From an uncultured Bacteroidota bacterium (GTDB lineage: Bacteria; Bacteroidota; Ignavibacteria; UBA10030; UBA6906): a stretch of 64,000 bases of DNA. Of this stretch, positions 27,421 through 62,807 are shown piece by piece. How positions within the stretch are numbered: position 1 is the stretch's first letter; each line of letters starts with the position of its first letter. The stretch lies in the NCBI GenBank assembly GCA_963809695.1, contig CAWEKI010000001.1, forward strand, positions 21,018-85,017, in the 5' to 3' direction. The notes beneath the pieces are model-generated. The model ran no database searches. It was given only the letters and a program-made list of their open reading frames with translations, and had not been told where the DNA came from. A program made the translations under genes and the position numbers.

Positions 27421-27503
27421 GCGGAAGTGGCGAAATTGGCAGACGCACCATCTTGAGGGGGTGGCGCCCAAAAGGCATGCGGGTTCAAGTCCCGCCTTCC
27501 GCA
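27421..27503 (+). tRNA. tRNA-Leu (anticodon GAG), type II with long variable arm
   Basis: Acceptor GCGGAAG/CTTCCGC, anticodon stem CCATC/GGTGG with loop TTGAGGG, long variable arm, T-arm GCGGG-TTCAAGT-CCCGC. Confidence 0.85.
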
Positions 27504-27850
27504 CGAAAACGACCTCTCTAACCCCTTGTCAATCAAGGGGTTATTTGTTTTTCTCCCAGAAGGCGGGACTCTCTATGCGCCCCTGGTCCTGCCTCCGCAC
27601 GTGTCGGATCATCCAATCATTTCTCCGTCTAGGTCCTTTTCGTTCCCGCCATTCCTTCGTTGGGTCTTTGCTCCATGGGTGAGGGAAGGGAGACATCCGG
27701 TACGGCTCAACCAGTATGCTCGAGTGATTGCAGTAACGCCGGATCCCTGTCCACCTGTTACATGGCAGCCTCGGGCGACATGTTCATCGGCAGCGGGAGG
27801 TGATCGCTCGTAGGGCATCCTTGGAAAAGGTTCTGCACCGATACGAGCGA
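27481..27850 (+). repeat. tRNA-Leu 3'-end + terminator + ~350-bp flank module (copy A1)
   Basis: Diverged copies at 61684-62060 (A2), 46310-46410 (partial A3) and 62232-62300 (tRNA-3'/terminator-like). Shared motifs: ttcaagtcccgccttccgca, aaccccttgtcaatcaaggggttatttgttt, ctgtccacctgttacatgg, gctcgtagggcatcc. Confidence 0.6.
27520..27552 (+). terminator. rho-independent terminator after tRNA-Leu
   Basis: aacccctt-gtcaatc-aaggggtt hairpin followed by atttgttttt. Confidence 0.6.
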
Positions 27851-28514
27851 CGGCCGGGGATGATTGGGAACACGGGGTTGCTTCTATATCCCTAAGCGCT
27901 GGTCCTTATGTGGATAATGCCGACGTAGGGCCTCATCCTTGGTGCCTAAAGGCCAACGCAGCGTGGGTTGGCGGTCCATATCTCACATTTGCGGGTCCTA
28001 TTCCTGAAGAAGCTTGAACACCCCGCGTGCAAAGGCGCATCGCGTCGTTCCCTGGAGTATCTCCGCTTCTGCCCGGTAGGCATTACCATGCTTGTCTACG
28101 AACCAAGCGTTGACCGTGAGCGGTGTGAGTAGGGGTGTCGTGACGAAATAGCGAACATCCAACCTGCCCGTCAAAGGGTTGCCGCCGTACAGATCATGCA
28201 ACAGTCACACCATGGCGCTATCCAGGATTGTTGCCACGATCCCTCCCAGAGCGATGCCTTCATATCCTTTGAAGCGTTTGTCAATCGTAACCATGGTGGG
28301 CGCGGGTCTACGTGTGTTCGGGGTCTTTCTTGACCCCCGATTCTGCCGATTCATTCTCCAATTCCGCACCTGCACGACGTTTGCCTCTTTTCTCCCATTC
28401 CATTACCTTGGTGTACTTGCCTCGCCAAATGGCCCTATACATGATGGCCGCGCTGATCAACGGTCCAGCCGGTTCGTTGTAGCTGTTGCAGGCGAGAATA
28501 TAAGGAAAATCAGG

Positions 28515-30575
28515 ATGGACGTGACTCAACCAGGCGAATCAAAAGGCTCTCTCCCAGTCGTAAGTGATGACTTGTCGGCACGCAAGAAGGATCTGACCGG
28601 AGAAGACGAAAGGTCGACTGGATTGGAGGGGAGCCTGGAGGCGCGGCTGGAGTTTGAGATGTTGCTCACCGATCTTTCTGCCCGCTTTGTGAATATCCCC
28701 TCTGAGCGTATCGACAGTGAGATTGAGGATGCCGAGCGTCGCATTTGCGAATTCCTTGCCATTGATGTTGCGACGCTTTGGCAGTGGGAGGAAGTTGCGT
28801 CGGGTGCCTTCGCGTTGACCCACCTCTTCAACGCCAATGGAGATCAGGCCCCGCCAGAACGCAGGATTGATGCGATATATCCCTGGGCCCGGCAACAAAT
28901 GCTGCTCGGCCGCGTGGTTGCTTTTTCGTCTCCAAACGATCTGCCGCCCGAGGCAGCCCGCGACCGCGAATCCCTCCAACGTTTCGGCATCAAGTCAGGT
29001 TTGATACTTCCTCTCTCGGTAGGGGGTGGAGCGACCATCGGGATCTTCGGTCTTGAAACAGTGCGAGCGGAGCGTGACTGGCCGGACGATTTGAAAAAGC
29101 GGTTGCAGTTAGTTGCACAGGTCTTTGCTAATGCCCTGGCGCGAAAGCGCGCAGATCAGGCGTTGATTGACAGTGGCGAGCAATTGGCTCTGGCTGCCGA
29201 GGCAGGGGAAGTCGGCATCTGGGTGCGAGATTATACTCACAACCGAATCTTGGGATCGGAAAAATGGCATCGACTGTTCGGGTTTCCCCCTGGTTCCGAG
29301 GTGAGTCTCGACGATTTTATGCAGCGGATTCACGCAGATGACCATGAACAGGTGGAGCGGGCGATTCTACGCACTATGAAGGAGCGCGTTGATTATGCAG
29401 CAGAATTCCGCCTGGTTCTACCCGATGGAAGGATGCGTTGGATCATGTCCCGTGGGCGGATTCAGGAGGCCGCAAATGGGAAACCGCCCCGTATGTTGGG
29501 AGCAGCAATTGACATCACCGAACGCAAACTGTTGGAGGGACAGCTCATTGATCACCTCCAAGAGATCGAGGAGCTCAAGCAGCGCGTCGAACAAGAGAAC
29601 ACCTATCTGCAGGAAGAGATCGGGCTTCTGGTTGAACACGCGGATATTGTGGGGAAGAGTGCAGCTATCAAGCAGGTTCTCGTTCGGGCAAGCCAGGTGG
29701 CCGGGACAGATGCGACGGTCCTCCTGATGGGCGAGACCGGTACGGGAAAAGAACTACTCGCGAGGGCGATCCACAAGATGAGCCGCCGGAAAGAACGCAC
29801 CCTGGTGACAGTTAACTGCGCCTCGCTACCAGCCACACTGATCGAAAGCGAACTCTTTGGCCGTGAAAAGGGAGCCTACACGGATGCACTGACGAAAATG
29901 GTTGGGAGGTTCGAGCTTGCAGACGGGTCAACGCTTTTTCTCGATGAGATTGGCGAAGTTCCTCTTGAGGTACAGTCCAAGCTCCTGCGCGTCCTCGAGG
30001 AAGGACAGTTTGAACGATTGGGCTCCACAAAGACACTGCATGCGAACGTCCGCATCATTGCTGCCACAAACCGGGATCTCGGGCGGTTTGTGCAGGAAGG
30101 CAAATTTCGGCAAGACCTTTACTACAGGTTGAATGTTTTCCCCCTTGTCGTCCCACCGCTCCGCGAACGGCCGGAGGATATCCCGCTTCTGGTCTGGACC
30201 TTTGTCAGAGAGTTTGAGATGAAGATTGGCAAGCGGATCGATCGCATTTCCAGCAAGTCCATGGATTCCATGCAACGTTACCCCTGGCCGGGCAATGTCA
30301 GGGAATTGAGGAATATGATCGAACACGGGATGATTGTGAGCACCGGTAACACCCTCACGGTGAACTTGCCTCAAGATGACCTTTCAGGAAAAAACAAAGC
30401 TTCAGACCTTGACAGTATTGAACGAAGTCATATACTCAAGGTTCTGACAGGGTCCGGCTGGCGTATCGGCGGCAAAAGCGGGGCGGCAGAGGTCTTGGGA
30501 CTGCAAAGAACTACACTTCAGTCGCTGATGAAAAGACTCGGAATCAAACGTCCCCTCCCCGGGGGACGGCAATAA
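28515..30575 (+). CDS. sigma54-dependent transcriptional activator (enhancer-binding protein) with N-terminal GAF/PAS sensory domains
   Basis: AAA+ sigma54-interaction domain (GETGTGKE, ESELFGREKGAYT, GAFT-equivalent region). C-terminal Fis-type HTH. ATG 28515 chosen by colinearity with the paralog at 46943. Confidence 0.85.
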   Translation: MDVTQPGESKGSLPVVSDDLSARKKDLTGEDERSTGLEGSLEARLEFEMLLTDLSARFVNIPSERIDSEIEDAERRICEFLAIDVATLWQWEEVASGAFALTHLFNANGDQAPPERRIDAIYPWARQQMLLGRVVAFSSPNDLPPEAARDRESLQRFGIKSGLILPLSVGGGATIGIFGLETVRAERDWPDDLKKRLQLVAQVFANALARKRADQALIDSGEQLALAAEAGEVGIWVRDYTHNRILGSEKWHRLFGFPPGSEVSLDDFMQRIHADDHEQVERAILRTMKERVDYAAEFRLVLPDGRMRWIMSRGRIQEAANGKPPRMLGAAIDITERKLLEGQLIDHLQEIEELKQRVEQENTYLQEEIGLLVEHADIVGKSAAIKQVLVRASQVAGTDATVLLMGETGTGKELLARAIHKMSRRKERTLVTVNCASLPATLIESELFGREKGAYTDALTKMVGRFELADGSTLFLDEIGEVPLEVQSKLLRVLEEGQFERLGSTKTLHANVRIIAATNRDLGRFVQEGKFRQDLYYRLNVFPLVVPPLRERPEDIPLLVWTFVREFEMKIGKRIDRISSKSMDSMQRYPWPGNVRELRNMIEHGMIVSTGNTLTVNLPQDDLSGKNKASDLDSIERSHILKVLTGSGWRIGGKSGAAEVLGLQRTTLQSLMKRLGIKRPLPGGRQ

Positions 30576-30690
30576 GACCACGCTGCCGAAATGTCGGCAC
30601 GAGTCTGAAGTTATTCTCACTCTCCACGTTGCTCCCGCCATAAACACCCCCAAAGAGTGCGTTTTTCGTGCAGATCTCTCAGACCTTCTC

Positions 30691-30705
30691 TGGCATGATT
30701 CTCGC
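30691..30705 (+). promoter_or_regulatory. candidate sigma54 (-24/-12) promoter upstream of ABM gene 1
   Basis: TGGCAT-N5-TCGC with the GG-to-GC spacing of 12 expected for RpoN promoters; 75 bp upstream of the ABM start and downstream of the EBP gene. Confidence 0.4.
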
Positions 30706-30780
30706 CGCTTGGTCTCTAGTGTCGAGAGATAAGAGAAGGCTCTCCTTGGGGGAATTCTTCCTTCCCTTCCAGCAAACGAA

Positions 30781-31170
30781 ATGGTTCAATTGCGGTCAAC
30801 ATACCAGTTGGAAGCCAATCAAATGGTTCACACTACGATCAGGATGGAAATGTCTCCGGGAAAAGCAAGGGATGCATTGGAGGTCCTTCGCCCCCTGGCT
30901 GAACGAACCAGAGTCGAGCCCGGATGCATAAGTTGTAGGGTCTATCAAGACGTCCAGCAAGAACATACGATCATGATGGAGGAACTGTGGAGCACCCAGC
31001 AAGAGCTTCGCCGGCATCTCTGCTCTTCGGATTACCAGAGGATCCTCCTGGTGATCGAGATGGCAAAAGGGCAACCTGAGATTAGGTTCAATACGATTTC
31101 ACACTCAAGCGGTTTTGAAACCATAGCTGAGGCAAGAAATCACGATGTGATCGTGGCACACGGCCACTGA
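30781..31170 (+). CDS. ABM (antibiotic biosynthesis monooxygenase)-domain protein
   Basis: Pattern ...VEPGCISCRVYQDVQQEHTIMMEELWSTQQELRRHL... matches the ABM-domain consensus (EPGCL.Y........F...E.W.S.EA...H). Paralog at 49063. Confidence 0.65.
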   Translation: MVQLRSTYQLEANQMVHTTIRMEMSPGKARDALEVLRPLAERTRVEPGCISCRVYQDVQQEHTIMMEELWSTQQELRRHLCSSDYQRILLVIEMAKGQPEIRFNTISHSSGFETIAEARNHDVIVAHGH

Positions 31171-31222
31171 ATGAGAAACCGAATTCAACACACCGGAATA
31201 TAGATAAAGAGGAGAACACACA

Positions 31223-33643
31223 ATGGCACAAGCAAAGGCTGCAGAGAAGAGCTCCACAGGGCGCGTCAAGGCAGATAAAGCACGGATCGACCGGCTGAAA
31301 GAACAGCTCAGGAGCACGCCTGCCGAGGTCGATTTTGAACGCGTCAGGATTATGGCGGAGGTGTACGATGATGCTGCCGGCTATCAGACGATCATCTGTA
31401 GGGCCAAATTCATGGCAACCCTGCTTGAGAGGAAAAAGTTGTACATCGACGAAAATCTCTTTGTGGGCAGCATGGCAAGCACCGTCAATGGCATCTACAC
31501 CTATCCGGAATGGCAAGTGGATTGGATGATAGAGGAGAATACGATTGATGAGAAGTGTAAAACCCCGGAAGACAAGAAGGCCAACAAATGGGCGCTCGAA
31601 TACTGGGAAAAGCGTGCACTGAAGCCCCGCACGCTCGATATATTCGAAAGAAAATATGGTTTTGATCCGCGCCCTTCCTATGCTTCCGGCAATGTCGTTA
31701 GTTTCTTTGACTGGCCCGGTGGCGGAGGCAACCTGAACTATCCCCGGGTTTACAGGGAAGGGCTTGCCAGCATGATCAAAGAGGTAGAGGAGCGCGAGGC
31801 AGCCCTCGAAATGAGACTGCCGAATGCGGACAAGTTCGCCTTCTATGAAGCCAGTCTAATTGTCATGAGAGCCTTTATTCGCCTGGCTCACCGTTATGCT
31901 GAACTGGCAAGGGAGATGGCGGCTAAGGAAAAGGATGCAACCCGTAAGGCGGAGCTGATAGCAATTGCCGAAACCTGCGAATGGGTTCCTGAGCATCCGG
32001 CCCGCAATCTGCGGGAGGCTATGCAGTGCCATTTCTTCTGTCATATCGTTGCAGAAATAGAGCAGGTCGGTTGCGGCTATTCTGAGGCTTATCTGGGCCA
32101 GAATTTAGAGCCGTTCTATCAGGCTGACAAGGCTGCCGGTCTAATTGGATATGACGAGGCAGTCTATATGTTCGAGAACCTCGTCATCAAGCTGAACGAG
32201 ATCGGCTATTACTATGGCGAGAAGGTCGCCTTGCAGAACTCTGCCGACCTGGGTCAGAGCATCACGCTCGGTGGCTATACCGAAGATGGAGATGATGCCA
32301 CCGCTGAAATGGATTATGTGGTCCTGGATGCATGTAACTACCTTCACTTGCCACAGCCTCCACTGAGTTGCTGCTACACGGAGAGAATGAGCGGTAAATT
32401 CCTGGAGAAGGTCCTCGATGTAATAGGCACGGGTATCGGTATGCCTCAGTTCGTCAATGGCGAAGTGATGGTGAAGCGCGCCTTGAATCTCTTTGCAGAC
32501 TCCAAGAAGGGCCTCACACTCGAAAAAGCCAGACGCACCTGCATTGGCGCCTGCGTAGGTTCATACATTCCCTATGAGACAGGACACCCTGTTGAAGGGC
32601 AGCCCAACCTGGGGAAGGTCATCGAGTTGTTGATGAACAATGGCTTCGATCCCCGCACCAAGCAGCAGATCGGACCCAAGACCGGAGATCCCGAGACCTT
32701 CAAGACTTTCGAAGAACTATACGCTGCATTCCAAAAGCAGATCGATTTCAACGAGGAGGTTCTCCGCCGGGGTGCATGGATCGCCAGCATGTTGTGCGCG
32801 GACTTCCTGCCGACAACCTGGCGCTCGCTTCTTACCGGGGGCTGCATTGAAACCGGCACCGAGGTATGGAATGGCGGAGCCAATTACTACACAACTGCGC
32901 AAATCGTTGTCGGTGGTGTTGACGCCGCCAACTCGCTGATGGCGGTGAAAAAGTTGGTCTATGATGACAAAAAGATCACCATGGCCGAGCTGAAAAAGGC
33001 GCTGACTGCCAATTGGGTAGGATACGAGCATGTACGCAAGATGTGCTATGAAGCTCCCAAACATGGCAACGACATTCCTGAAATGAACAAGCTGACTCGT
33101 AAGGTGTTCAATAGTATCTATGAGGCTTTCCAAAAGGTAGATGGTGGTGGAAACTACATCAGCCAGGACATTAAATCAGCGCCTGATGCCTATACCAAGA
33201 GCATCCACAACCTGATGGGACTGGTGACGGGCGCGCTGCCGAACGGTAAATATGCCGGGGTTGCACTCACCGATGGAAGTCTGTCGGCCATGCCGGGAAC
33301 CGATGTCAATGGGCCTACCGCGTTGATTATGTCTGCAGCGAAGAGTCAGGATGCCATTAAGTATACAGCAACACACATGAACATGAAATTCCCGCCCGAT
33401 CAGCTGAAAACACGCAAGGGCCGGGATAACGTGCTGAATCTTATCAAGACCTATTTTGACAATGATGGCTATCACATTCAGTTTAATGTGCTCGATACCA
33501 ACATCCTGAGAGATGCACAGAAGCACCCTGAAAACTACCGTGACCTTGTGGTTCGGGTAGCTGGTTTCAGCGCTTTCTTCACCAAACTGGCCCCGGGTGT
33601 GCAGGAAGAGGTCATTGCCCGTACCTTGCAGAGTTTCAAATAA
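31223..33643 (+). CDS. glycyl radical enzyme (pyruvate formate-lyase fold), 806 aa, with non-canonical active-site loop
   Basis: C-terminal glycyl-radical motif VRVAGFSAFF. The C-terminal ~350 aa are colinear with E. coli PflB. The catalytic loop aligns as IGACVGSY against PflB IACCVSPM: a single Cys, neither the CC of PFL nor the CxE of the eliminases. Confidence 0.85.
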   Translation: MAQAKAAEKSSTGRVKADKARIDRLKEQLRSTPAEVDFERVRIMAEVYDDAAGYQTIICRAKFMATLLERKKLYIDENLFVGSMASTVNGIYTYPEWQVDWMIEENTIDEKCKTPEDKKANKWALEYWEKRALKPRTLDIFERKYGFDPRPSYASGNVVSFFDWPGGGGNLNYPRVYREGLASMIKEVEEREAALEMRLPNADKFAFYEASLIVMRAFIRLAHRYAELAREMAAKEKDATRKAELIAIAETCEWVPEHPARNLREAMQCHFFCHIVAEIEQVGCGYSEAYLGQNLEPFYQADKAAGLIGYDEAVYMFENLVIKLNEIGYYYGEKVALQNSADLGQSITLGGYTEDGDDATAEMDYVVLDACNYLHLPQPPLSCCYTERMSGKFLEKVLDVIGTGIGMPQFVNGEVMVKRALNLFADSKKGLTLEKARRTCIGACVGSYIPYETGHPVEGQPNLGKVIELLMNNGFDPRTKQQIGPKTGDPETFKTFEELYAAFQKQIDFNEEVLRRGAWIASMLCADFLPTTWRSLLTGGCIETGTEVWNGGANYYTTAQIVVGGVDAANSLMAVKKLVYDDKKITMAELKKALTANWVGYEHVRKMCYEAPKHGNDIPEMNKLTRKVFNSIYEAFQKVDGGGNYISQDIKSAPDAYTKSIHNLMGLVTGALPNGKYAGVALTDGSLSAMPGTDVNGPTALIMSAAKSQDAIKYTATHMNMKFPPDQLKTRKGRDNVLNLIKTYFDNDGYHIQFNVLDTNILRDAQKHPENYRDLVVRVAGFSAFFTKLAPGVQEEVIARTLQSFK

Positions 33644-33663
33644 TCTGAAGATCAAGGAAGCTC

Positions 33664-33702
33664 ATGTAAGGCATGGCACTTGGTCATGCCTTACATTTTG
33701 TT
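33664..33702 (+). terminator. rho-independent terminator after the GRE gene
   Basis: Perfect 12-bp inverted repeat atgtaaggcatg ... catgccttacat followed by tttgtt. Confidence 0.6.
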
Positions 33703-33704
33703 CC

Positions 33705-34045
33705 GTCAACACCCTTTCCTGTCCCGCCCAAGCGGGAGCCTTAGTTTCGGGGTTGACTAAGAAGCAGCAGTAGTCATTTCGGGAGAGCGAAGCGACGAAG
33801 CAGTCTCTTATCGGCTCTGGGGTTGCTTCGCCCCGCCAAGGCGGGGCTCGCAGTGACAGGAAAGCAGTCAGATTGTGCGCCAGAGGTTCATCCCTTGGGG
33901 GCTTCGGGCCCACAGGTCCGGTCCTTCGGACCGAGACTCTCGGTCTGAAAGGCCGGAGCAGGCTCGCAATGACAGTTGGAGGACTTTTGGGTCACTCCCG
34001 AAGAGTGTGATTTGAGCGCAACCGAACAGAAGTTAATCAAGGAGG
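33705..34045 (+). promoter_or_regulatory. repeat- and hairpin-rich structured leader upstream of the PFK-like gene (possible cis-regulatory RNA or clustered palindromic elements)
   Basis: Multiple GC-rich hairpins (tcccgc-ccaa-gcggga; ccccgcc-aa-ggcgggg; ggtcc-ttc-ggacc; ccgaga-c-tctcgg) and a twice-repeated ggctcgcaRtgacag motif (33845, 33961). Confidence 0.35.
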
Positions 34046-34051
34046 CACATT

Positions 34052-35224
34052 ATGAGTACGGAAATTGGTCATGGTAGTTTTCTCAGGCGCATTGCTATCA
34101 ATGTTGGCGCCGGCTACGTTCCTGGCATAAATGCCGTTATTACGGGTGCTGCGATGGCGGCCGGTAAAATGGGATGGGAGATGGTCGGTGTTTGCGATGG
34201 GTTTGAAGGTTTACTTCACCCCGAAAAATATCCTGAGGGTGGACTGGTTACACTCAGCCCTCGGCTGATAGAAAATCTTGATCCTTCTGCAGGGGGTATA
34301 CTTGGCCAATCGGTCCGGGTCGATCCGTTTCATGTCCGCACGGTAAACAAAGACGACATGGTGGAAGAAGTGGACATGTCCGATGATCTCTTGAAAAGGC
34401 TGAAGGAAGAAAAGATTGACGGATTGATTTCAGTGGTTGGCGGACTTGGGCTGAGTATTCTCTACAAGCTCCACCGCAAAGGGCTCAATGCGGTGTGCAT
34501 CCCAAGGTCGATCGATAATGATATCGCCTGTACTTCGGTGTCATTCGGATTCAACAGCGCCCTCACCTTCACCATCGAAATGCTGGACCGTGCCCGTCAG
34601 GCGGCCCAGTCTGCACGCAAAATTGCAGTAGTCGAGGTACAGGGAGAGCAGGCTGGATGGATTGCACTCCAGGCAGGTATAGCAGCTTGTGCTGATGTCA
34701 TCATGATCCCCGAGATCCCTGTTGATCTCAAGAATGTGGCACGGAGATTAAAAGATAAGATGTCACCCAGAAGGCCGTACGGGCTTGTTGTGGTGGCCCA
34801 GGGAGCGAAACTTATCAGTCAAACTAAGAAGGAAGGGGCCACATCCTCCCTAAAAGCTACTCTGTCGCCACTGGCTACCGGTGATTCCAGCAGTGAGCAC
34901 GTCATTCAGAGTTCTGGCCAGGCAGCAGAGACTGTGGCAAGAGAACTTCAGCTGCTGATAGCCGAGGAAACCTATCCGCTCGTCATCGGTCCCTGGGTCA
35001 GGGGTGGTACCCCAACTGCTGTCGACCGCCAACTGGGGATGGCGTACGGAGCCGGGGCATTGCAGGCGCTGAAAGCGGGGAAGAATGGAGTAATGGTTGC
35101 TTTTGTTCCTCCTGAAATCAGGTTCGTGCCGCTGGCAGAAGCAATCAACAAAGTCAGAACGGTGTCTGCGGACAGCGAATTCCTGAAGATTGCTCATTCA
35201 CTTGGCATTTATTGTGGAAAATAA
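34052..35224 (+). CDS. phosphofructokinase-fold protein with degenerate catalytic motifs (PFK-like)
   Basis: Colinear with ATP-PFK (PGINAVITGAAMAA ~ PGMNAAIRGVVRAA; IPRSIDNDI ~ LPGTIDNDI; KIAVVEVQG ~ RISVVEVMG). GGDGS is replaced by GGLGL. The MGR fructose-6-P arginine is replaced by QGE. The N-terminal SGGD is replaced by VGAG. Confidence 0.7.
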   Translation: MSTEIGHGSFLRRIAINVGAGYVPGINAVITGAAMAAGKMGWEMVGVCDGFEGLLHPEKYPEGGLVTLSPRLIENLDPSAGGILGQSVRVDPFHVRTVNKDDMVEEVDMSDDLLKRLKEEKIDGLISVVGGLGLSILYKLHRKGLNAVCIPRSIDNDIACTSVSFGFNSALTFTIEMLDRARQAAQSARKIAVVEVQGEQAGWIALQAGIAACADVIMIPEIPVDLKNVARRLKDKMSPRRPYGLVVVAQGAKLISQTKKEGATSSLKATLSPLATGDSSSEHVIQSSGQAAETVARELQLLIAEETYPLVIGPWVRGGTPTAVDRQLGMAYGAGALQALKAGKNGVMVAFVPPEIRFVPLAEAINKVRTVSADSEFLKIAHSLGIYCGK

Positions 35225-35236
35225 GGAGGAAGAATT

Positions 35237-36211: not shown

Positions 36212-36250
36212 GTTCGTGTTCGAGGTCGCAATCTAAGAACCGGGGTATTT

Positions 36251-37390: not shown

Positions 37391-37449
37391 CGTGCGGGCC
37401 GGACCGGGAGAGCTCGATATCTCCCGAATCCTAAATTGATTTTCGATAA

Positions 37450-38202: not shown

Positions 38203-38249
38203 CCGGCTGCAGTAAGTCAACAGGGAACGCGAAATTCAGGAGGATATTC

Positions 38250-49049: not shown

Positions 49050-49062
49050 GTACTTCTCAGGC

Positions 49063-52478: not shown

Positions 52479-52492
52479 AAAGGAGATCTTTC

Positions 52493-53371: not shown

Positions 53372-53456
53372 GCTCACCCGGTAAACAATGAAGACCATGA
53401 AAAGCTTATTAATGATTCGCCACGAAGGTAGAAGCGTATGAGGGCACAGGATATTT

Positions 53457-53770: not shown

Positions 53771-53774
53771 AACA

Positions 53775-54581: not shown

Positions 54582-54603
54582 TGAATATATATCTTAAACA
54601 CCT

Positions 54604-56406
54604 ATGAAAATGAATTCAATAGATGAAGCAGAAGGCAAAACGGGAAAGGCATCCCTGATGGGAGTGCTTAGGGGTTATTTGCCCATCCTTGATTGGGGAG
54701 CAAAATACACCAGCAAGACATTTACAAACGACATGATCGTTGCGCTGATTGTAACGATGATGTTGATCCCGCAGTCGCTGGCCTATGCGTTGCTTGCGGG
54801 GCTGCCGGCAGAGGTCGGACTGTATGCCTCGATGGCGCCGCTCGTGCTCTATGCGATCTTCGGCACATCCCGCACGCTCGCGGTCGGTCCCGTGGCGGTG
54901 GCCAGCCTCATGACCGCGGCAGCAGCCGGACAGCTCGCCTCCCAGGGAACACCGGAATATCTGGGGGCTGCCATCGCGCTCGCTATGGTCTCAGGTTTGT
55001 TGCTGCTCGCAATGGGGTTTCTGAAGCTTGGGTTTCTTGCAAATTTCCTCAGCCACCCCGTCATCTCGGGATTCATTACAGCTTCCGGTATTCAGATCGC
55101 TGCAGGTCAGCTCGGACCCGTTCTCGGGATACATGTTGAAGGAGAAAGTTTTCTGGATATTGTTATTTCGTTATGGCACACTATTACTCACATCCATCTC
55201 GCAACCGCAGCCATCGGTATCGGCTCTCTCATCTTTCTCTTCTGGGTTCGCAGCGGACTGAAGCCGCTTCTGGTCCACTTCGGACTGGGTGCGCGTGTCT
55301 CCGACATACTGGTTAAAGTTGGTCCTGTTGTGGCCATCATTGCAGCTATTCTCATAGTGTGGACCTTTGGTCTGTCTGATAAAGGGGTAAAAATTGTCGG
55401 AACGGTGCCCGGTGGTTTACCAAAACTTGCCATGCCGCCGATGGATATGGCACTCTGGATGAAGATCCTCGTGCCGGCGCTTCTGATCTCCATAATAGGC
55501 TATGTTGAGTCAATCTCGGTTGCTCTTACTCTTGCTGCCAAACGTCGTCATCGCGTCGACCCCGACCAGGAGTTGATCGCGCTTGGCATGTCCAACGTCG
55601 GTGCGGCCCTGTCGGGCGGATTTCCGGTGACGGGCGGCTTCGCTCGCTCGGTGGTAAACTTTGAAGCTGGCGCTGAGACGCCCGCTGCCGGGGCATTCAC
55701 GGCGGTCGGCATCGCTCTCACCACGATGTTTCTTACTCCGCTTCTGTTCTTTCTGCCGAACGCAACGCTCGCCGCCACCATTATCGTTGCGGTCCTGTCG
55801 CTGGTGAATCTCAGCGCGCTCAAGCTCACGTGGCACTATTCGTGGACCGATGGCGCGGCGATGGCCGCCACTATCCTCCTCACCTTGGTCGAGGGCGTGG
55901 AAGCGGGGCTGTTGGCGGGCGTGGGTCTCGCCATCTTCCTCCATCTTTACCAAACGTCGAAGCCGCATGTGGCGGTCGTGGGCCAGATCCCGGGCACCAT
56001 GAATTTCCGCAACGTGGCCCGGCATACGGTGGTGACTGATCCCGAGTTTCTATCGCTCCGGGTGGACGCCAGTCTCTATTTCCCGAACGCACGCTTCATC
56101 GAGGACTACATCAACGGGGCGGTTGCGGCCAACCCGACTGTCCGCCACGTCATCCTTGAATGCGCGGCGGTGAATGCGATTGACGCCTCGGCGCTGGAAA
56201 GCCTCGAGGCGATTAACCACCGGCTCAAGGATGGCGGAATTACCCTCCACCTCTCCGAGGTAAAGGGCCCAATCATGGACCGCCTGAAGCGGTCGCATTT
56301 CCTGGAAGAGCTGACCGGCAAAGTCCACCTTACCCAATATGATGCCGTTTCCAGTATCAAACCAGATTTGGCGTCGCATACGTTGGAAGCAAAGAGACCT
56401 TCATGA
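54604..56406 (+). CDS. SulP-family anion transporter with C-terminal STAS domain
   Basis: 600 aa; SulP TM core; C-terminal STAS region (...VILECAAVNAIDASALESLEAINHRLKDGGITLHLSEVKGP...). Confidence 0.85.
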   Translation: MKMNSIDEAEGKTGKASLMGVLRGYLPILDWGAKYTSKTFTNDMIVALIVTMMLIPQSLAYALLAGLPAEVGLYASMAPLVLYAIFGTSRTLAVGPVAVASLMTAAAAGQLASQGTPEYLGAAIALAMVSGLLLLAMGFLKLGFLANFLSHPVISGFITASGIQIAAGQLGPVLGIHVEGESFLDIVISLWHTITHIHLATAAIGIGSLIFLFWVRSGLKPLLVHFGLGARVSDILVKVGPVVAIIAAILIVWTFGLSDKGVKIVGTVPGGLPKLAMPPMDMALWMKILVPALLISIIGYVESISVALTLAAKRRHRVDPDQELIALGMSNVGAALSGGFPVTGGFARSVVNFEAGAETPAAGAFTAVGIALTTMFLTPLLFFLPNATLAATIIVAVLSLVNLSALKLTWHYSWTDGAAMAATILLTLVEGVEAGLLAGVGLAIFLHLYQTSKPHVAVVGQIPGTMNFRNVARHTVVTDPEFLSLRVDASLYFPNARFIEDYINGAVAANPTVRHVILECAAVNAIDASALESLEAINHRLKDGGITLHLSEVKGPIMDRLKRSHFLEELTGKVHLTQYDAVSSIKPDLASHTLEAKRPS

Positions 56407-56586
56407 AAGGAGACAAGAGACATTCAAGAGGATAGGGCAGTCCCTGTAACTTGACTTCCAAGTCGTCACACCATAGAACAGTTTTATCCACGCGATCGGT
56501 CACGGTTGAAGAGAAACCACCATCACTTCCGGTCCGGTGAGCGTCAACACAACATATCGCCACACATGTGAAAAGGAGACATTATC

Positions 56587-57774
56587 ATGACAGACGCAAA
56601 AGTGAAAGCGACGACGTTCGAAAATACGAAAATGAGCGTTGTCCCATTGAAATGGAACGAGGTGTATTACACCAACTGTCCGCTCGTGTCCGCCAGCAAT
56701 GTGGACCAGGAACTCGGCTGGACCAGAGAGGAGTTCAAGAAGATCGGCGTGAAGTACGCCTTTATGCGCTCCGCCCGCGAGAACGACTGGTACCCGCACT
56801 ACATCCATAACCTCGACAACCTCATTCGTTTCGGCGGTTTATTCCCGCCCATCCATGTTCACGCCGACATCCGCCGGACCAGGCTCCTGGGGGTGACGCA
56901 TGTATACGAAGGCGGCGTAATGCTGGTGCGCTCCAGGGACAAGATCTACCGGATGACCGATCTGAAAGGAAAGAAGATCGGCCTCTCGAAGAGCATGAAC
57001 ACCATCAAGACCGACTGGTGGCGCATCCAGGAGGAACAAGGCATCGAGCTTATGCTCATGATGAACGGCATGACCCGCAAGGACGTCGAGATCGTTGAGT
57101 TCCCCTACCCGGATGACTGGTACAACGATGCCAGGATGCTGGATCCTATGGAAAACCCATCTGAACTCTGGCTTAAGCGTGATCACAAGCGCGACCTGGC
57201 CTTCCGTCCATTGGAGACGGCCCTGGAAAAGGGCGTGGTCGATGCCGTCTATAGCCAAAGCAAAGTCTTGAGTGTTCTCTCAGAGGCAACAGGCAAGTTC
57301 AAGGCGATCGAGGACCTGTCCCGGTATCCGGACTGGACCCTGCAGGTGGCCAATGTCCCCGCCGTCATCACCTGTACGGACGTCATGGCCGAGAAACATC
57401 CCGAGCTGGTCGTCGCGTTCATGAAGGGCATGATTAAGGTGGGGCGCTGGGCCAACGAGAACAAGCACGCTGCGGCCGCGATCCTCGACAAGCAAACGTT
57501 CTATTTAGACGTCGAAGATACGTACAGAGGCATCAAAAACATCGACATGGTGCCCAACCTGTCGCCCCAGAACCTGGTCTCCGTTGAGATCGGGAAAGAC
57601 TTTATGCTGAGTCACGGATATATCAAGCACGACTTCGAAGTACAGAAGTGGGCCGCGCCGGAGTTCCTCGAACGGGCAGCCAGAGAATTGTTGGAAGAAC
57701 AATGGAAAAAGGTGACCACGTCAAAGCTTCCCGAGACGGCTTCGCCTCTGGCATCTGGAGATCGGCTCGGGTAG
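56587..57774 (+). CDS. SBP-fold protein (SsuA/NMT1/THI5-like), candidate DszB-type sulfinate desulfinase homolog
   Basis: No signal peptide. YTNCPLVSA (cf. DszB YSNCPVP with catalytic Cys), RFGGLFPPI (cf. RFGGEIPPL), RRTRLLGVT, C-terminal QKWAAPEFL (cf. DszB QWAAPEFL). Comparison is to DszB recalled from memory. Confidence 0.4.
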   Translation: MTDAKVKATTFENTKMSVVPLKWNEVYYTNCPLVSASNVDQELGWTREEFKKIGVKYAFMRSARENDWYPHYIHNLDNLIRFGGLFPPIHVHADIRRTRLLGVTHVYEGGVMLVRSRDKIYRMTDLKGKKIGLSKSMNTIKTDWWRIQEEQGIELMLMMNGMTRKDVEIVEFPYPDDWYNDARMLDPMENPSELWLKRDHKRDLAFRPLETALEKGVVDAVYSQSKVLSVLSEATGKFKAIEDLSRYPDWTLQVANVPAVITCTDVMAEKHPELVVAFMKGMIKVGRWANENKHAAAAILDKQTFYLDVEDTYRGIKNIDMVPNLSPQNLVSVEIGKDFMLSHGYIKHDFEVQKWAAPEFLERAARELLEEQWKKVTTSKLPETASPLASGDRLG

Positions 57775-57831
57775 TCAGGAGGAGACATGATGAGGAGGAA
57801 AACGATGAGACGGTCATGATGTGTTCTTGAG

Positions 57832-58160
57832 TTGTGTCTGTTGTTCATTCCCGTGATTACACTGACCCAGGGGGAGCCTGGGTGGGGCAAGATGTCCCTC
57901 GGCACGAGCGTCGAGCTGAATCTTCCTGTCGGAGATTTCAGCCCTATCGCAGGTACCGGGTACGGTGGCGACGTTCGATGCCGTATGGAAGCGATTCACG
58001 CACGGCCTTTGCGGCCACGGCAGAGTACCTTGTCTGGGGGAAGAAGGATTGGACGACCAATCCGTTGGTTCAGCCAAAGGCTTTCAACATTTTCCTCGGA
58101 GGGAAGTACTATTCAGATCGAGTGAATCCAAAGTCCAGGGAAATATCGTACAACCGGAGG
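57832..58160 (+). pseudogene. frameshifted, truncated copy of the OMP gene at 50187-50717
   Basis: Two overlapping frames each carry part of the OMP sequence (GEPGWGKMSLGTSVELNLPVGDFSPIAGTGYGGDVR / SRTAFAATAEYLVWGKKDWTTNPLVQPKAFNIFLGGKYY), then it terminates early. Confidence 0.55.
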
Positions 58161-58164
58161 ACGT

Positions 58165-58947
58165 ATGATGTACACGACCATGCTTGTGGGCGTGATTACA
58201 CTCGTCGGGCTCTTCCTGGGAATGATCATCTTCCTGGAGATCGGCCGCCGTCTCAGACAACGGTTATTGTCCCAGGATATCGAGAAGGTCAGCGGCGCTT
58301 TGAGCGTGGTGGAAGGGGCACTCTTCGGCTTGATGGGCCTGGTCATTGCGTTCACATTCTCGGGGGCGGCCTCTCGATTCGATGAGAGGCGGCATCTGAT
58401 AGTGGAGGAGGCCAATGACATCGGTACTGCGTACCTGCGTCTCGACGTACTTGCGAAAGAATCTCAGCCGCAGATTCGGGAGATGATGCGCCGGTACGTC
58501 GACGCCCGGATTCAAACCTACAGGGTATTGCCCGATTATGATGCGGCGCTCGTTCAGATCGCGAAGGCCAATGAAATCCAGCGGGAGATCTGGAATCACG
58601 CCGTCGGCGCTACGAGTGAAGCAACGAACCCGCAAGCGGCGATGATCCTCCTCCCTGCACTGAACGAAATGTTCGATATCGCGAACACACGTTTCTGGGC
58701 TGGCCAGATCCACCCCCCGCCGTTGATCTTTGGGCTCCTCGGCGTTCTCGCACTTGTCTGCGCACTCCTAGCCGGGTATGGCATGGCGGGAAGGACAACG
58801 CGGAGCTGGATCCATATCGTGGCCTTCGCCATCATCCTTACCCTCACTGTCTACGTCATCGTCGACATGGAGTACCCGCGTATGGGATTCATCCGAGTCG
58901 ACTCGTTTGACCAGGCCCTGGTGGACGTACGGGCAGCCATGCAGTGA
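58165..58947 (+). CDS. hypothetical membrane protein (TM segments at both termini)
   Basis: N- and C-terminal hydrophobic helices around a charged helical core; no motif recognised. Confidence 0.4.
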   Translation: MMYTTMLVGVITLVGLFLGMIIFLEIGRRLRQRLLSQDIEKVSGALSVVEGALFGLMGLVIAFTFSGAASRFDERRHLIVEEANDIGTAYLRLDVLAKESQPQIREMMRRYVDARIQTYRVLPDYDAALVQIAKANEIQREIWNHAVGATSEATNPQAAMILLPALNEMFDIANTRFWAGQIHPPPLIFGLLGVLALVCALLAGYGMAGRTTRSWIHIVAFAIILTLTVYVIVDMEYPRMGFIRVDSFDQALVDVRAAMQ

Positions 58948-59263
58948 GTCGCCGCCCCGGGGGTCCGGATGGCCTAGCTTGGACTGGAAATCCATTGAAC
59001 CTTGGAAACACAAAGAGAACAGGGGAGCAGCTGGAGAAAAGGATTCCTGCGTGGCTTTCTCCGCCGCTATTTCCCCATCCCGACATGGGGCGCTGAAAAC
59101 TAAGGCAGGACGTTCACGGTGCCCTATCGTTTACAGGAAATGATAGTTGATGGGGCATTAGATTCTCGAACACTCCACGATGCGCGAGGTCGGGGATTGT
59201 GGGCTCCGGATTCGCACACAACAACTCACAGACCAATTCCTGATCGGGAAGCTCGGAACGTTT

Positions 59264-60217
59264 ATGACCAGACTCTTCGAAGTGACCCGGACCGGTCTTG
59301 TTGAGCAGCGCCCGACCGGCCGCACGGGCTTCCATTTGCCCCGCAAGTCAGTCTCCTGGTTCCTCATTCGTCGCGCCGGCCCATCATGGGACATCATGCA
59401 GGAGGGGCTGCCGTTCGACGACGCCACGCTTGCATGGATCGCGGCCCCCGACCAGCGGCCGACATTTCGCGTAAAGGGGAATCTCGCGCTCGTGGATTTC
59501 GCACTATACAATGGAGCCAACGATGAGCACCCGGATTACGTGAGAATAGCAATCGGAAGGAACCTCCTCATCACTATCGGCTCAGCCGAGTCAAACATGC
59601 TCGATTCGATGGCCGAGGCGCTCGGGCAGATCACATCCCCCGTCCAGCCAGTCGTTGAGGACATCCTCTACAACCTTATCAATGCTATGATCGCCGCTCA
59701 TGCGGAGGCTGCAGCGAACGTGAGGCGGCTCGTGAATGACATTGCCCTGAAGGTGGACAGCGACATTTCCTCCGTGGAAGTCAGAGAAATCCTGAAGGCC
59801 AAGACGCGGCTCGACCGTCTCTCGTATGTTCTGGAGGAACAGTCCATCAGCATCGGATTCTCGCCCCACATACGGTGGCGAGGAAGATCGGACCGAGTAC
59901 GCATCGAGTTTGCGAACCTCCGGACCTCATTGCGATCGTTAGAGACCTCCATGGACAACACCAGGAGCCGCCTGGATACTATCCATCACCAGTACGAACT
60001 CGTACTCCAGGAAGCGTCCAATAAGCGGCTGAACGTGCTGACGATCGTGCAAACGATTTTCGTGCCGCTGACGTTCCTCGCCGGGATCTATGGGATGAAC
60101 TTCAGCTACATGCCCGGGCTGGAATGGCGGTACGGATACTTTGCCGCGCTGGGCGTCATGTTGTTGATCACAGCCTTCTCCCTCCGTTACTTCGCCCGCC
60201 GTGGGTGGTTCAAGTAG
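59264..60217 (+). CDS. corA: CorA-family divalent cation (Mg2+/Co2+) transporter
   Basis: C-terminal two-TM region with the signature LAGIYGMNF (GMN motif). ATG 59264 preferred over ORF-track start 59180. Confidence 0.8.
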   Translation: MTRLFEVTRTGLVEQRPTGRTGFHLPRKSVSWFLIRRAGPSWDIMQEGLPFDDATLAWIAAPDQRPTFRVKGNLALVDFALYNGANDEHPDYVRIAIGRNLLITIGSAESNMLDSMAEALGQITSPVQPVVEDILYNLINAMIAAHAEAAANVRRLVNDIALKVDSDISSVEVREILKAKTRLDRLSYVLEEQSISIGFSPHIRWRGRSDRVRIEFANLRTSLRSLETSMDNTRSRLDTIHHQYELVLQEASNKRLNVLTIVQTIFVPLTFLAGIYGMNFSYMPGLEWRYGYFAALGVMLLITAFSLRYFARRGWFK

Positions 60218-60226
60218 GCGCCATGC

Positions 60227-60712
60227 TCACCCGGACCCTGCTGACACCCAGGTGACGGGCCAGGACCGCCTGGCTATCTTGGCAAACCAGCCAAGGCGGT
60301 CAGGATTGTAGCGATCAAAGATGGGAACGTATGGTTTGATATCCAGCAGTGGCGTTCCGTCCAGGATATCCACGTCTTCGATCCAAAGCACCCGGCCTTT
60401 GACGCCTGTTAGTCTCACGACGGATATCCCAATGGGGTTGGGTCGTTCAGGCGCTCGTGTGGCAAAGATGCCGTGCGGGCGTTTGTCCAGGAAGGGCGTG
60501 ACCTCCAGAGAACACCTCGTGGTGCGATGGAAATGGTAAAGGAGGATGACATGTGACAGTCCCCGAATACCTTTCAGGCCTTTGGCATACTTTGCCTTCA
60601 GTTCTATTGTTCCTTTGACACCTTTTGCGCCCCGAGGTTGAATTGGCATCCCCTTGGGATCAGTAAAGGGTGAGCGGATAGTGCCGATTGGAGTGTACCG
60701 TATCTGTTTCAT
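60227..60712 (-). CDS. tsaA: tRNA (adenine37-N6)-methyltransferase TrmO/TsaA (YaeB family)
   Basis: MKQIRYTPIGTIRSPFTDPKGMPIQP...GLSHVILLYHFH...RPNPIGISVVRL...LDGTPLLDIKPY: TsaA-like fold motifs. ATG 60712 preferred over the longer ORF to 60820. Confidence 0.8.
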   Translation of the reverse strand: MKQIRYTPIGTIRSPFTDPKGMPIQPRGAKGVKGTIELKAKYAKGLKGIRGLSHVILLYHFHRTTRCSLEVTPFLDKRPHGIFATRAPERPNPIGISVVRLTGVKGRVLWIEDVDILDGTPLLDIKPYVPIFDRYNPDRLGWFAKIARRSWPVTWVSAGSG

Positions 60713-61067
60713 AGGGTTTCGGCGTATGATACGGGCCACATTTCTCACCACGAAGCATCTGGGACGAGCGGTCCGTGTTTCCTTGCCGGACAACATAGTA
60801 ATGGGAACCTGCACAGTCAAGCCATGGCGTGCCTGTCGCTACGACATCCGCGAAGTGTATAAGAGATTTCACGTGATTTGAAAGCGAAGAAATGTAGGAC
60901 GCCTGCATCCTGACGAATGGGTTCCAGATCCGCCGTCCTCAGTAAGCAAAAGGTGACGCATTACTGGGCCACCGTTTTCTTTTGCTCCGGAGCTCCGTGT
61001 CGCAGGGGGTAAGAGGTGAGTTGCCTGTCAACGACTAAACTTCCTATGGAGGTCCTGTAGTGATGGC

Positions 61068-61469
61068 ATGAGTGACCGCACGGGCACATGTCTTGCCATT
61101 GATGCATCAGGAACAGTCTACATGGGAAATTACAATGGCCTTTTTAGAACGCTCGAAACGACCTTCACTGAAATCCCCGTTTCTTCTACTGAGGTGCGGG
61201 CCGCCTCGTTCCAGCATTGCCCCAACTACTCCAATTATCCTTTCAACCTTACGACAATTATTCACTACGACCTGACGTATAGGTCATACGTGACCCTTGC
61301 GGGCTTCAATACGGTCGGGCAGCAGATGGTCACACTGGTCAACGGCGAGGGCGAGGAGGAGTACCATGAGGTCACATTCATTGCAGAAGGCCTAGCATCA
61401 GGGGTCTACTTCTACCGGATTCAGGCCAGTGGCTATACCCAGACGCGTAGGCTCTGCCCAATTCGGTAG
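61068..61469 (+). pseudogene. orphan 3' fragment encoding a T9SS C-terminal sorting domain (CTD)
   Basis: C-terminal ~80 aa match the T9SS CTD pattern (NYPNPFN.TT.I.Y.L......V.L..YN..G..V.TLVN......G.H.V.F.A..LASGVYFYR.QA..F..T.K). Only ~50 aa of cargo precede it, and the upstream frame is open but has no start. Confidence 0.55.
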
Positions 61470-61683
61470 GTTGAAAAAATCATGCGCCCTTATTGCGCCC
61501 TTGGCTGTGCAATACATGTAAGAGATGGAAGAGATGAACGTGGCGATCTGGCGAATACGGCCTAGATTTCGCTGATCGCCACATCCGTCTTTGGTCCCGG
61601 TCTCCGCCCGAGGGCGTAGACCGAGGATCCTCGTCCCGACATCGAAGTTAGCATCGGCCTCAGCCTCGCTAACTTCGGTCGGG

Positions 61684-61709
61684 ACGGGATTCAAGTCCCG
61701 CCTTCCGCA
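61684..61709 (+). other. fossil tRNA-Leu 3' fragment (T-arm + acceptor 3' strand), part of module copy A2
   Basis: cgggattcaagtcccgccttccgca matches the last ~23 nt of tRNA-Leu(27421-27503). Followed at 61734-61764 by a copy of the same terminator hairpin (aacccctt-gtcaatc-aaggggtt-atttgttt). Preceded by an 18-bp bulged hairpin (61635-61683). Confidence 0.55.
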
Positions 61710-62807
61710 CAAAACCTCTTCTCTAACCCCTTGTCAATCAAGGGGTTATTTGTTTGGCCCCCAGAAGTCCGGACTCTCTGTGCGCCCTTGATCCCGCCCT
61801 CCAAATCGTTACATCACGCAACCGCTTCTCCCTCGAGGTGATATTCCTATTGGCTGATCCTTCGTTCGGAATTTGCTGCATGGGCTATAGAAGGGAGACT
61901 CCTGAAGACTGAATCATCATCTGCAAGTGATTCCCATTGTTCCTGAACCATGTCCATCTGATAAACGGAATCCTTCGATGACATCCTCATCTGCCCGTGG
62001 AATCGGTCGCTTGTAGGGCATCGTCGGAAGAAATTCCGACTCCACGTGGCGACAGAAGAGCCGCCCGGCTCACGATGAACTGAGAGCACGAGCGGTCTTT
62101 GTGTTTCGACATCAATCGCTGCGTCCGTATCGGTACCTTGACGTGGGAAAGAGATGCATCAGATACAAGAGATGGAAGCTGCCATTTGGCGAAAGCCGGG
62201 AAATTCCGCTCCATGCGCAAATGATCTTTGGTTCGAGTCCTGCTCGCGGAGCGAGAATCCCCTTGGTAACACAAGGGGATTTTCATTTCTATTTCGGGGT
62301 GTACCCTTATCTGTACCCCTGACGTATCGACCTGTACCCTTCATTCGATTGATACAAACTGAAACGTACCAAATCCATTTAAAAAAGGCCAGATAAGGGT
62401 TCACCGACCGTTTCGCCGTCCCGATCCGAAGGATCGGGACGAGCCTCGTCCCTCCACCGAAGGTGGAGGGACGGGAGTCCGGCCTGCCCGCCGAAACTGA
62501 TTCACAAGTGCAGGCGGGCTCGCGGACCTGCTCGACTCGCCCCACCAAAGCCAATGGTGGGGCGATTTTTTTGGTGGGGCTCACTCGCGGCTCCTTCGGA
62601 ACCCCGCCACAATCCGATGTTGAGTACATCCTTCGCTATCATGTCATTATTACACTGATGGGTAAAAATGCCACCAGGGTATTGTTCACGGGGCATATTT
62701 CAGCCCTGTTGGTCCAAATCCGCATCTGGCATGAATCATGCGCTGTTCACAATGCCGAATAGGACAATAGTGCGGAAGGACATCTGAGAACAAAAGGACT
62801 CCGGGCA

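Follow-up and report, generated by a model that had tools for sequence, protein, structure and literature searches.

We find that the gene for tRNA-Leu(GAG) in an uncultured bacterium of the phylum Bacteroidota is probably, though by no means certainly, a hot spot of site-specific integration, and that the DNA next to it is probably a tandem array of old cargo islands without integrases. The stretch analysed, referred to as the window, is 64,000 nucleotides long and belongs to contig CAWEKI010000001.1; positions are counted from its first letter, and the array in question extends from 27.5 to 62.6 kb. A preliminary description of the window, made from its letters alone, had considered both repeated integration at this tRNA gene and, as its preferred reading, an ancient duplication. 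The first of these ideas is strengthened here, namely by a break in homology among relatives at the end of the tRNA, by arms of sequence that the junctions share, and by the occurrence of the tRNA-derived core beside integrase genes in viral contigs, while the second fares badly, as discussed below.

Direct repeats at three junctions

Repeats were detected by BLASTN of the window against itself and by BLAST confined to its three long intergenic regions; the matches below come from the former unless the latter is named. The proximal end of the block, junction J1, contains the following features:

27421-27504, plus strand: intact tRNA-Leu(GAG) gene (ARAGORN; Rfam 48.9 bits)
27519-27543, plus strand: terminator hairpin A, TAACCCCTTG-TCAAT-CAAGGGGTTA with a T run (terminator scan)
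27551-27826, plus strand: F_A, copy A of a flank called F, non-coding (self-BLAST, alignment)

An intact tRNA gene, 27421-27504, is what one expects at one end of a tRNA-associated island, and its final ~23 nt (27481-27504) are copy A of what we will call the core. Within F_A lie a 12-mer of the core in inverted orientation (27559-27570), a TGCGCCCCTG box (27576-27585) and a conserved sub-motif of ~90 bp, M (27737-27826). The 12-mer, AGTCCCGCCTTC, belongs to the T-arm and acceptor of the tRNA; its inverted copy lies 55 bp beyond the tRNA end, past the terminator, and is retained with two mismatches in F_B, the copy of the flank at the distal junction, J3:

61466-61504, plus strand: copy 2 of a repeat called R, 92.3% identical to 46124-46162
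61505-61686, plus strand: spacer from R to core, with many perfect hairpins (fold of 61556-61760, z=-7.5)
61687-61710, plus strand: core copy B, an orphan tRNA-Leu 3' end (sequence match)
61724-61748, plus strand: terminator hairpin B (terminator scan)
61751-62029, plus strand: flank copy F_B, with sub-motif M at 61945-62036 (self-BLAST, alignment)

The tRNA end, terminator and flank had been said to recur near 61684-62060 at ~70% identity, and the self-alignment agrees, matching 61687-62029 to 27481-27826 at 72.7% over 348 bp (E=3e-45). Copy B of the core is direct, 23/24 identical (21 nt exact at 61690-61710) and without the tRNA 5' half, no tRNA being called at 61687-61710; in other words, the distal boundary of the block carries the 3' part of the tRNA once more, in direct orientation. 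The large repeat starts at the T-arm with no tRNA 5' part ahead of copy B, as is classic for attachment (att) sites in tRNA genes. What is more, identity between copies A and B is stepped: it is 94% over the tRNA end and terminator (27481-27550; 93-94% for the terminator hairpin) and 66% over the flank (27551-27826), whose alignment has 2 gap columns and whose similarity ends after 27826. The longest exact stretches common to the two copies are 21 and 36 nt. We infer that the tRNA end and terminator stayed conserved because a working tRNA must be restored, while the arms were free to drift.

At 46 kb, a middle junction, J2, is composed of copies in the same direction:

45964-46052, plus strand: C1, a copy of the flank motif M only, 69% identical to 27738-27826 (four-way alignment)
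46124-46162, plus strand: R copy 1, with an exact 29-mer at 46134-46162 (self-BLAST)
46152-46398, plus strand: flank copy F_C (two collinear matches, offsets 18576 and 18574)
46478-46528, plus strand: copy 1 of a hairpin called H, GACTCGCCCCACC...GGTGGGGCGAGTC (BLAST)

The preliminary description had placed flank motifs at 45965-46000 and 46310-46410, an exact 29-bp repeat at 46134 and 61476, and a pair of hairpins at 46478 and 62535, and all of these are recovered. In particular, 46311-46398 matches 27737-27821 (73.9%, E=3e-7), the two copies of R match at 92.3% over 39 bp (E=2.5e-8) with the 29-mer verified in both, and 62534-62579 matches H copy 1 (78.4%, E=5.5e-4); the intergenic comparison adds 45964-46052 against 27738-27826 (E=8e-4) and 46152-46235 against 27576-27657 (72%, E=2e-5). 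Since the matches at 46152 and 46311 are collinear, a third flank copy, F_C, spans 46152-46398. R copy 1, which carries two tandem TGCGCCCTT(A/G) boxes and has C1 72 bp upstream, joins F_C directly through a shared 10-mer, TGCGCCCTTG. At 61.5 kb, this 10-mer is found at the end of R (61494) and again within F_B (61781), and 287 bp present there, comprising spacer, tRNA 3' fragment and terminator, are absent from J2; given this placement of the boxes, J2 resembles J3 minus the 287 bp between them. As a putative internal att copy, J2 (46124-46528) retains the arms R and F_C together with H, the core and terminator being gone.

All repeat copies are direct and follow one order, namely R, core, terminator, F, H, and F, R and H are found within the 64 kb at the three junctions only, in that single order and orientation. 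What the junctions have in common flanks the core at either end: R lies 5' of it and terminator-F 3' of it. The self-alignment, by which the earlier repeat calls stood or fell, returns significant direct repeats with E down to 3e-45.

As to the character of F, three candidate functions were considered, and none is supported. A coding role is contradicted by open reading frames (ORFs) that are not kept between copies on either strand, by mismatches that show no 3-base periodicity (34/26/32 by codon phase) and by the lack of a Pfam match. Structured RNA finds no support for F or M: RNAalifold on four copies and both strands gave ~-4 kcal/mol with almost no covariation, while Rfam at the gathering score returned only two tRNAs and at E<=5 only chance hairpin matches in the junction regions. 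Finally, F is not a promoter or leader of the sigma-54 enhancer-binding protein (EBP) genes of the block, as no F similarity exists upstream of EBP orthologues in two relatives, L095 (947-kb contig) and L101 (2.47-Mb contig).

Scars beyond the distal junction

Past F_B, the right-hand edge of the block holds a further series of features:

62120-62193, plus strand: R', tentatively another, diverged copy of the R region (69% identical to 61483-61555, weak E=0.02)
62230-62252, plus strand: orphan tRNA-Asn(GTT) 3' end (23/23 to the intact gene in viral contig L100)
62253-62284, plus strand: terminator hairpin after the tRNA-Asn fragment (terminator scan)
62300-62339, plus strand: three TGTACCC repeats within 40 bp (motif search)
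62410-62530, plus strand: hairpin array X (fold z=-8.6)
62534-62579, plus strand: hairpin H copy 2, terminator-like, with a T run (self-BLAST, terminator scan)

R' begins 84 bp past the M of F_B, the same order as that of C1 and R at 46 kb. The region 62232-62300 had been described as a further degraded copy of tRNA-Leu, an assignment that the perfect match of 62230-62252 to tRNA-Asn(GTT) replaces; the hairpin that follows has the stem CCCCTTG/CAAGGGG, which is that of the tRNA-Leu terminator. The terminator-like hairpins are those at 27519-27543, 61724-61748, 62253-62284 and 62537-65. Array X resembles the sequence after a partial tRNA-Leu in one of the relatives, L098 (local score 34; shuffles 19.6 +/- 2.2, maximum 27), and because X-like sequence follows a tRNA-Leu fragment there, the comparison suggests that X-H is the oldest, shared flank. 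Just upstream of X, 62381-62410 is possibly a very degraded tRNA-Leu relic. Separately, runs of GC-rich, near-perfect hairpins cover 62395-62585 and 61556-61760 (z=-8.6 and -7.5), many of them starting GTCCCG and having GAA loops; the first run closes with a terminator and could be a small RNA gene or elements like repetitive extragenic palindromes (REP). From 62808, a secreted ORF leaves the window, and its few homologues bear sorting domains of the type IX secretion system (T9SS).

One could argue that F, R, H and the hairpin arrays are simply dispersed non-coding repeats, be they REP-like, similar to miniature inverted-repeat transposable elements (MITE), or terminator modules, and that only the 23-nt tRNA piece is att-derived. 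The density of perfect GC-rich hairpins at the junctions, with the z values just given, would fit this, as would the X-like hairpin sequence in L098, the CCCCTTG-stem terminators behind two different tRNA ends, and an IS200-like (RAYT-type) gene with flanking repeats 5 kb upstream. However, F, R and H keep to three junctions in 64 kb with constant order and orientation, two copies of F run on without a break from the tRNA end, and 22 kb around related cargo on each of L095 and L101 hold no tRNA and no F, R or H. We regard this explanation as improbable.

The tRNA-Leu locus in relatives

The NTP-transferase gene to the left of the tRNA (26268-27176) has homologues that are 75-80% identical, the best named relative being 'Bacteroidetes bacterium CTSoil_037'. 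The order of the left flank, namely giant PAS-GAF protein, response regulator, CN-hydrolase, SSF, GalK and NTP-transferase, is common to the relatives and kept up to the tRNA, while the genes downstream of it differ in each relative (for example, a PAS-kinase with response regulators in one; GDPD and a porin in another). Homology stops at the tRNA-Leu 3' end, the place at which the preliminary description had proposed to look for presence or absence of the block.

Four relatives (L001, L097, L098 and L102) were compared with the window at the DNA level around tRNA-Leu. Their 84-nt tRNA-Leu is 99-100% identical to that of the window, whereas the 42 nt after it fall into four unrelated classes among the five lineages, starting right after ...CCTTCCGCAC; identity between these classes is 48-64%, random 42-mers giving 56 +/- 4%. 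Two of the relatives, L097 and L098, come from different samples, have the same NTP-transferase and are 100% identical upstream, and they are unrelated from the tRNA-Leu 3' end on. The window itself pairs with L102 upstream (75%) and with L001, in which terminator hairpin A also occurs, downstream (93%, terminator). Since the downstream classes are distributed in conflict with the sequence upstream, terminator-F has the behaviour of an import, not of an ancestral flank. L098 has, at 1697-1874 of its contig, an insert of 94 bp that brings a terminator of its own, after which come a second partial tRNA-Leu (28 nt, 96%) and the X-like sequence mentioned above. Outside this group of bacteria, the core is found as an orphan fragment of 20-29 nt directly beside PF00589 tyrosine integrases in three viral contigs (L083, L088 and L094).

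The relatives' contigs with the NTP-transferase gene end within ~500 bp past that gene in five of seven cases, and the four read at the DNA level end 42-178 bp after the tRNA, which hints that assembly broke off where the site is variable or repeated. Would our conclusions be different if the window had been misassembled in the same place? Namely, contigs of different strains could have been joined through the shared tRNA end and terminator, the contig being metagenome-assembled and the relatives' assemblies breaking at tRNA-Leu. We find such a chimera scarcely credible, because exact stretches shared by copies A and B reach only 21 and 36 nt and because J2, a partial deleted copy, is not producible by a misjoin. 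In addition, R and the spacer, not the tRNA 5' half, precede copy B, and the style of the contig name along with frameshifted genes in sister assemblies would point to long reads.

A proposed history of the block

How might these junctions have arisen? We propose that each incoming element would have brought an attachment region of ~0.5 kb, ordered R, spacer, core (~23 nt), terminator and F, and that an integrase presumably made the junctions, with R and F as the likely att arms. Recombination in the stretch from T-arm to 3' end would rebuild the tRNA from the element's copy and shift the older junction distally, which would give the order of events. In this scheme, J1 would be the intact tRNA followed by terminator and F_A; J2 would be R, F_C and H, its core and terminator having gone later, when 287 bp were deleted from one TGCGCCCTTG box to another; and J3 would be R, spacer, core, terminator and F_B, after which the scar of a tRNA-Asn-type site and the putatively oldest flank, X-H, would follow. 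The mobility genes would have been lost or would lie beyond the window, local deletions would have followed, and the sub-blocks between the junctions would by now be fixed or cis-mobilizable metabolic islands, similar to the cis-mobilizable elements (CIMEs) discussed below. It is tempting to speculate that the TGCGCCCTTG boxes, present twice in R and once in F, are arm-type sites.

That said, a number of observations weigh against this history. Among the major and intergenic ORFs of 27.5-64 kb, Pfam detected no domain of an integrase or other recombinase, of an excisionase, of a relaxase or of a phage, and between the genes of the block no ORF bears the trace of a pseudogene; the earlier statement that integrase genes are no longer present is therefore true of the window, and the integrase gene that a tRNA island would carry inside it is missing. 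In none of the relatives was an empty site found, one in which the right-hand flank comes straight after tRNA-Leu, clear though the loss of synteny at the tRNA 3' end is. Homologues of the right-flank ORF occur only on contigs of <=3.6 kb, without useful context, a scan of genome contigs gave a single truncated relative, and a metagenome scan gave 80 loci at <=63% amino acid identity (one at 78%, truncated), none with tRNA-Leu(GAG) beside the gene. The relatives are, moreover, 75-80% distant at the amino acid level and not conspecific strains of the window organism. Viral, phage and plasmid collections yielded no circular or attP form; in particular, neither the terminator, R and M motifs in IMG/VR nor the junction DNA in phage and plasmid collections gave a match. 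As J2 has no core, the case for it as an att junction comes from R and F only. Also, F is homologous at all junctions, even the most distal, which calls for at least three related elements or for a captured chromosomal flank, and simple serial integration does not account for a tRNA-Asn fragment next to a scar of tRNA-Leu type. Finally, outside a patch at 50.8-54.6 kb, GC content and GC content at third codon positions (GC3) are just mildly below those of the left flank.

The tRNA-Asn fragment invites a bolder reading, which we consider rather doubtful, namely that R-spacer-core-terminator-F is a conserved cassette of ~0.5 kb by which an undescribed, still-active family of elements attaches in uncultured Bacteroidota, that cargo without a recombinase is moved in trans by an integrase whose gene lies elsewhere, and that sister cassettes swapped their tRNA specificity. 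The last of these is suggested by the homologous R/R' and terminators that accompany two cores of different origin, Leu (61687) and Asn (62230). If this were true, TGCGCCCTTG, the M motif and the three TGTACCC repeats would be arm-type binding sites, and the terminator supplied by the element would be under selection for the function of the rebuilt tRNA.

Cargo genes and composition

Between the junctions lie two sub-blocks of genes:

28515-45569, plus strand: sub-block 1 (Pfam)
46781-61469, plus strand: sub-block 2 (Pfam)

Sub-block 1 begins with the first sigma-54 EBP gene (EBP1), ABM1, a glycyl-radical enzyme (GRE), a PFK-like protein, an activating enzyme and Fer4, and continues with DUF2490, a GH63-like protein, glucose dehydrogenase (GDH), MIP, the first CoA-disulfide-reductase/rhodanese gene (CoADR1) and a 312-aa membrane ORF. 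EBP1 starts near 28515 and not at 28179, since its database entry P0121 is 686 aa long. Sub-block 2 begins with EBP2, ABM2, a 244-aa ORF, an outer-membrane-protein (OMP)-like gene, CoADR2, SBF and an SBF-like gene; SulP-STAS, an NMT1-like gene, a truncated OMP-like copy, a bestrophin-like gene and CorA form its middle, and its end consists of TrmO, on the minus strand, and an ORF of 133 aa that matches a T9SS tail weakly. The pairs of sigma-54 EBP, ABM and CoADR-rhodanese genes in the preliminary description are thus confirmed by Pfam.

A low-GC patch at 50793-54581 (CoADR2, SBF and SBF-like; GC 44-48%, GC3 0.40-0.54) stands out from most genes of the window, whose GC3 is 0.57-0.78. Its edges are free of scars, and it was apparently acquired more recently, from a donor of lower GC. 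Several further details of the cargo may be added. The truncated OMP-like copy, at 57866-58111, is 71% identical at the nucleotide level to the gene at 50160-50717 and overlaps the start of the bestrophin-like gene. Some five tandem units of ~11 bp, TTCCTGGAACN, lie at 46716-46790 over the listed, putative TTG start of EBP2 and may be an array for binding a regulator. At 44631-45823, the 312-aa membrane ORF, which has no Pfam match, is immediately followed by an 84-aa ORF in another frame, and the two may be a single gene with a frameshift.

To the left of the block, in the region 22241-23103 just downstream of tRNA-Lys(TTT), the minus strand carries at 22599-22961 an IS200-like Y1 transposase ORF of RAYT type (Pfam E=5.8e-12), frameshifted in appearance and flanked by tandem GGTCTGACCC(T)G repeats (22329-22370 and 23062-23103, 93% over 42 bp); a Y1_Tnp gene occupies the corresponding place in relatives.

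Possible duplication or recombination of the cargo

The preliminary description had favoured a single ancient segmental (tandem) duplication of a unit running from scar through EBP and ABM to CoADR, followed by divergence of the cargo. It is true that a flank copy, then EBP and ABM genes, stand at the head of each sub-block, that CoADR-rhodanese is encoded in each, and that the repeat copies are all direct. However, a single event should have left concordant divergences, with the paralogues mutually closest, and neither is the case. Namely, amino acid identity is 28.6% for the ABM pair, 45.9% for the EBP pair and 80.2-80.8% for the CoADR pair, the last of which differs at 62% of four-fold sites (Jukes-Cantor distance ~1.3, near saturation), while the Jukes-Cantor distance is 0.45 for flank F and 0.06 for core and terminator, and R is 92% identical at the nucleotide level, a discordance of more than 10-fold. 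CoADR2 and CoADR1 differ in GC (47.6% vs 61.0%) and in GC3 (0.41 vs 0.73), and CoADR1 is nearer to the CoADR of L101 (84.9% aa) than to CoADR2 (80.2% aa). Given this spread over ABM, EBP, CoADR, F and core, one duplication event cannot account for the whole pattern, and we reject the reading, whose remaining probability we put very low indeed.

The same conclusion follows from cargo elsewhere. Orthologues of EBP1, at 66-74% aa, occur in other genomic contexts (at 70-74% in other genomes), so that EBP1 is nearer to them than to EBP2. The order on L095 is CoADR-SBF-...-EBP-ABM-GRE-PFK-activase-Fer4-amylase-GDH-MIP, that on L101 is EBP-ABM-GH63-GDH-CoADR-SBF-SulP-NMT1, and a JGI contig has CorA-bestrophin-DUF4833-EBP-ABM-...-NMT1. 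As the EBP-ABM start and CoADR are thus conserved in relatives without scars, they are recurrent features of this type of cluster and not evidence of local duplication. Nucleotide identity of L095 and L101 to the window is mosaic, at 66-91% (68-91% for L095). In particular, 15373-18848 of L095 and 34028-37388 of the window (PFK-like, activase, Fer4) are 90-91% identical, with the neighbouring EBP at 74% and GDH-MIP at 70%, which suggests that the core of the glycyl-radical-enzyme cluster was exchanged between the two lineages recently. The GRE gene of L095 is split into four ORFs, be it as a pseudogene or through long-read indel errors.

Such shuffling raises the question whether the locus is a hypervariable one that was remodelled mainly by homologous recombination and gene conversion, with tRNA, F, R, CoADR and EBP as anchors between which cassettes for sulfur and sugar metabolism were swapped, duplicated and inserted, the tRNA-end copies being old passenger scars. 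The absence of mobility genes from the block is in line with this, and so are the mosaic identity to L095, the shuffled modules of the relatives (L101 is collinear if 31.2-38.2 and 44.6-54.6 kb of the window are insertions) and the J2 deletion, which amounts to recombination at short repeats. CoADR1 and CoADR2 are, further, 83% identical in their first 300 nt and ~70% elsewhere; that said, the genes show no chimeric crossover pattern, and a Campbell-type insertion via crossover within CoADR, which we considered, is not supported. Recombination of this kind also leaves unexplained why homology ends exactly at the last tRNA base, why the repeat starts precisely in the T-arm and why identity steps from 94% to 66%, and the first orphan tRNA end would still require some integrase-made junction. 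We therefore see it as an unlikely account of the block as a whole, though one to be taken seriously, and continue with serial integration at tRNA-Leu(GAG).

Comparison with known systems

Within the Bacteroidota, the window may be set, by description, beside NBU1 of Bacteroides, a mobilizable element with a tyrosine integrase, whose reported target is the 3' end of a tRNA-Leu gene. Unlike NBU1, the window has no IntN1-like integrase, oriT or relaxase. As there is no integrase inside the elements, its sub-blocks are best called decayed or cis-mobilizable islands and not intact integrative elements.

Tandem, decayed, CIME-like tRNA islands are already well described in other phyla. In Dehalococcoides, several islands stand in tandem downstream of one small-RNA gene, ssrA, with insertion in the T-loop region; direct repeats of the gene's 3' end delimit them, with extra conserved bases around each, and some are without an integration module, the authors suggesting that these are cis-mobilizable or fixed (PMC3146451). 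The window is similar in its putative tandem arrangement, in its 3'-end direct repeats, in the sequence conserved around them and in the missing integration module. The Dehalococcoides islands differ in targeting tmRNA, in having a serine integrase in many cases and in the length of the repeats, which is 20 bp there, compared with 23 nt plus terminator plus ~280 bp of flank here. CIMEs and their accretion are known from ICESt1/ICESt3 of Streptococcus thermophilus, and cis-mobilization of CIMEs has been shown experimentally (PMC5704250). The definition of a CIME, without genes for integration or transfer and with attL and attR kept, fits the sub-blocks of the window and, at the level of sequence, the whole 27.5-61.7 kb unit; no helper element is seen in the window. 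With the core gone from J2, any movement would at best take sub-blocks 1 and 2 together.

A further parallel is offered by the tycheposon-seeded islands of Prochlorococcus. They adjoin a tRNA gene at which elements integrated one after another, each arrival displacing the older ones distally; partial tRNAs and degenerate remnants are scattered through them, and metabolic cargo outlasts the vector (bioRxiv 10.1101/2020.12.28.424599). The window is like them in being tRNA-adjacent, in a putative distal displacement, in its partial tRNAs and in its metabolic cargo. However, that study has elements that carry integrases and fragmented integrases, of which none were seen in the window, and the phylum differs; the window in turn has, unlike the islands as described there, ~0.5 kb conserved around the core (R; terminator-F) and a tRNA-Asn-type scar mixed in.

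Implications

If our reading is right, the window would be a well-resolved case of a tRNA gene seeding a persistent metabolic island in an uncultured lineage of Bacteroidota, with a glycyl-radical-enzyme cluster, CoA-disulfide-reductase/rhodanese genes and anion transporters as its cargo. The terminator that now serves the tRNA, along with the downstream flank, appears to be imported and not ancestral, and the junction scars would permit relative dating against the cargo. For annotation, the two EBP-ABM-CoADR sets should not be taken as a recent duplication within the genome. Finally, integration at tRNA-Leu would explain why assemblies of this lineage break there.

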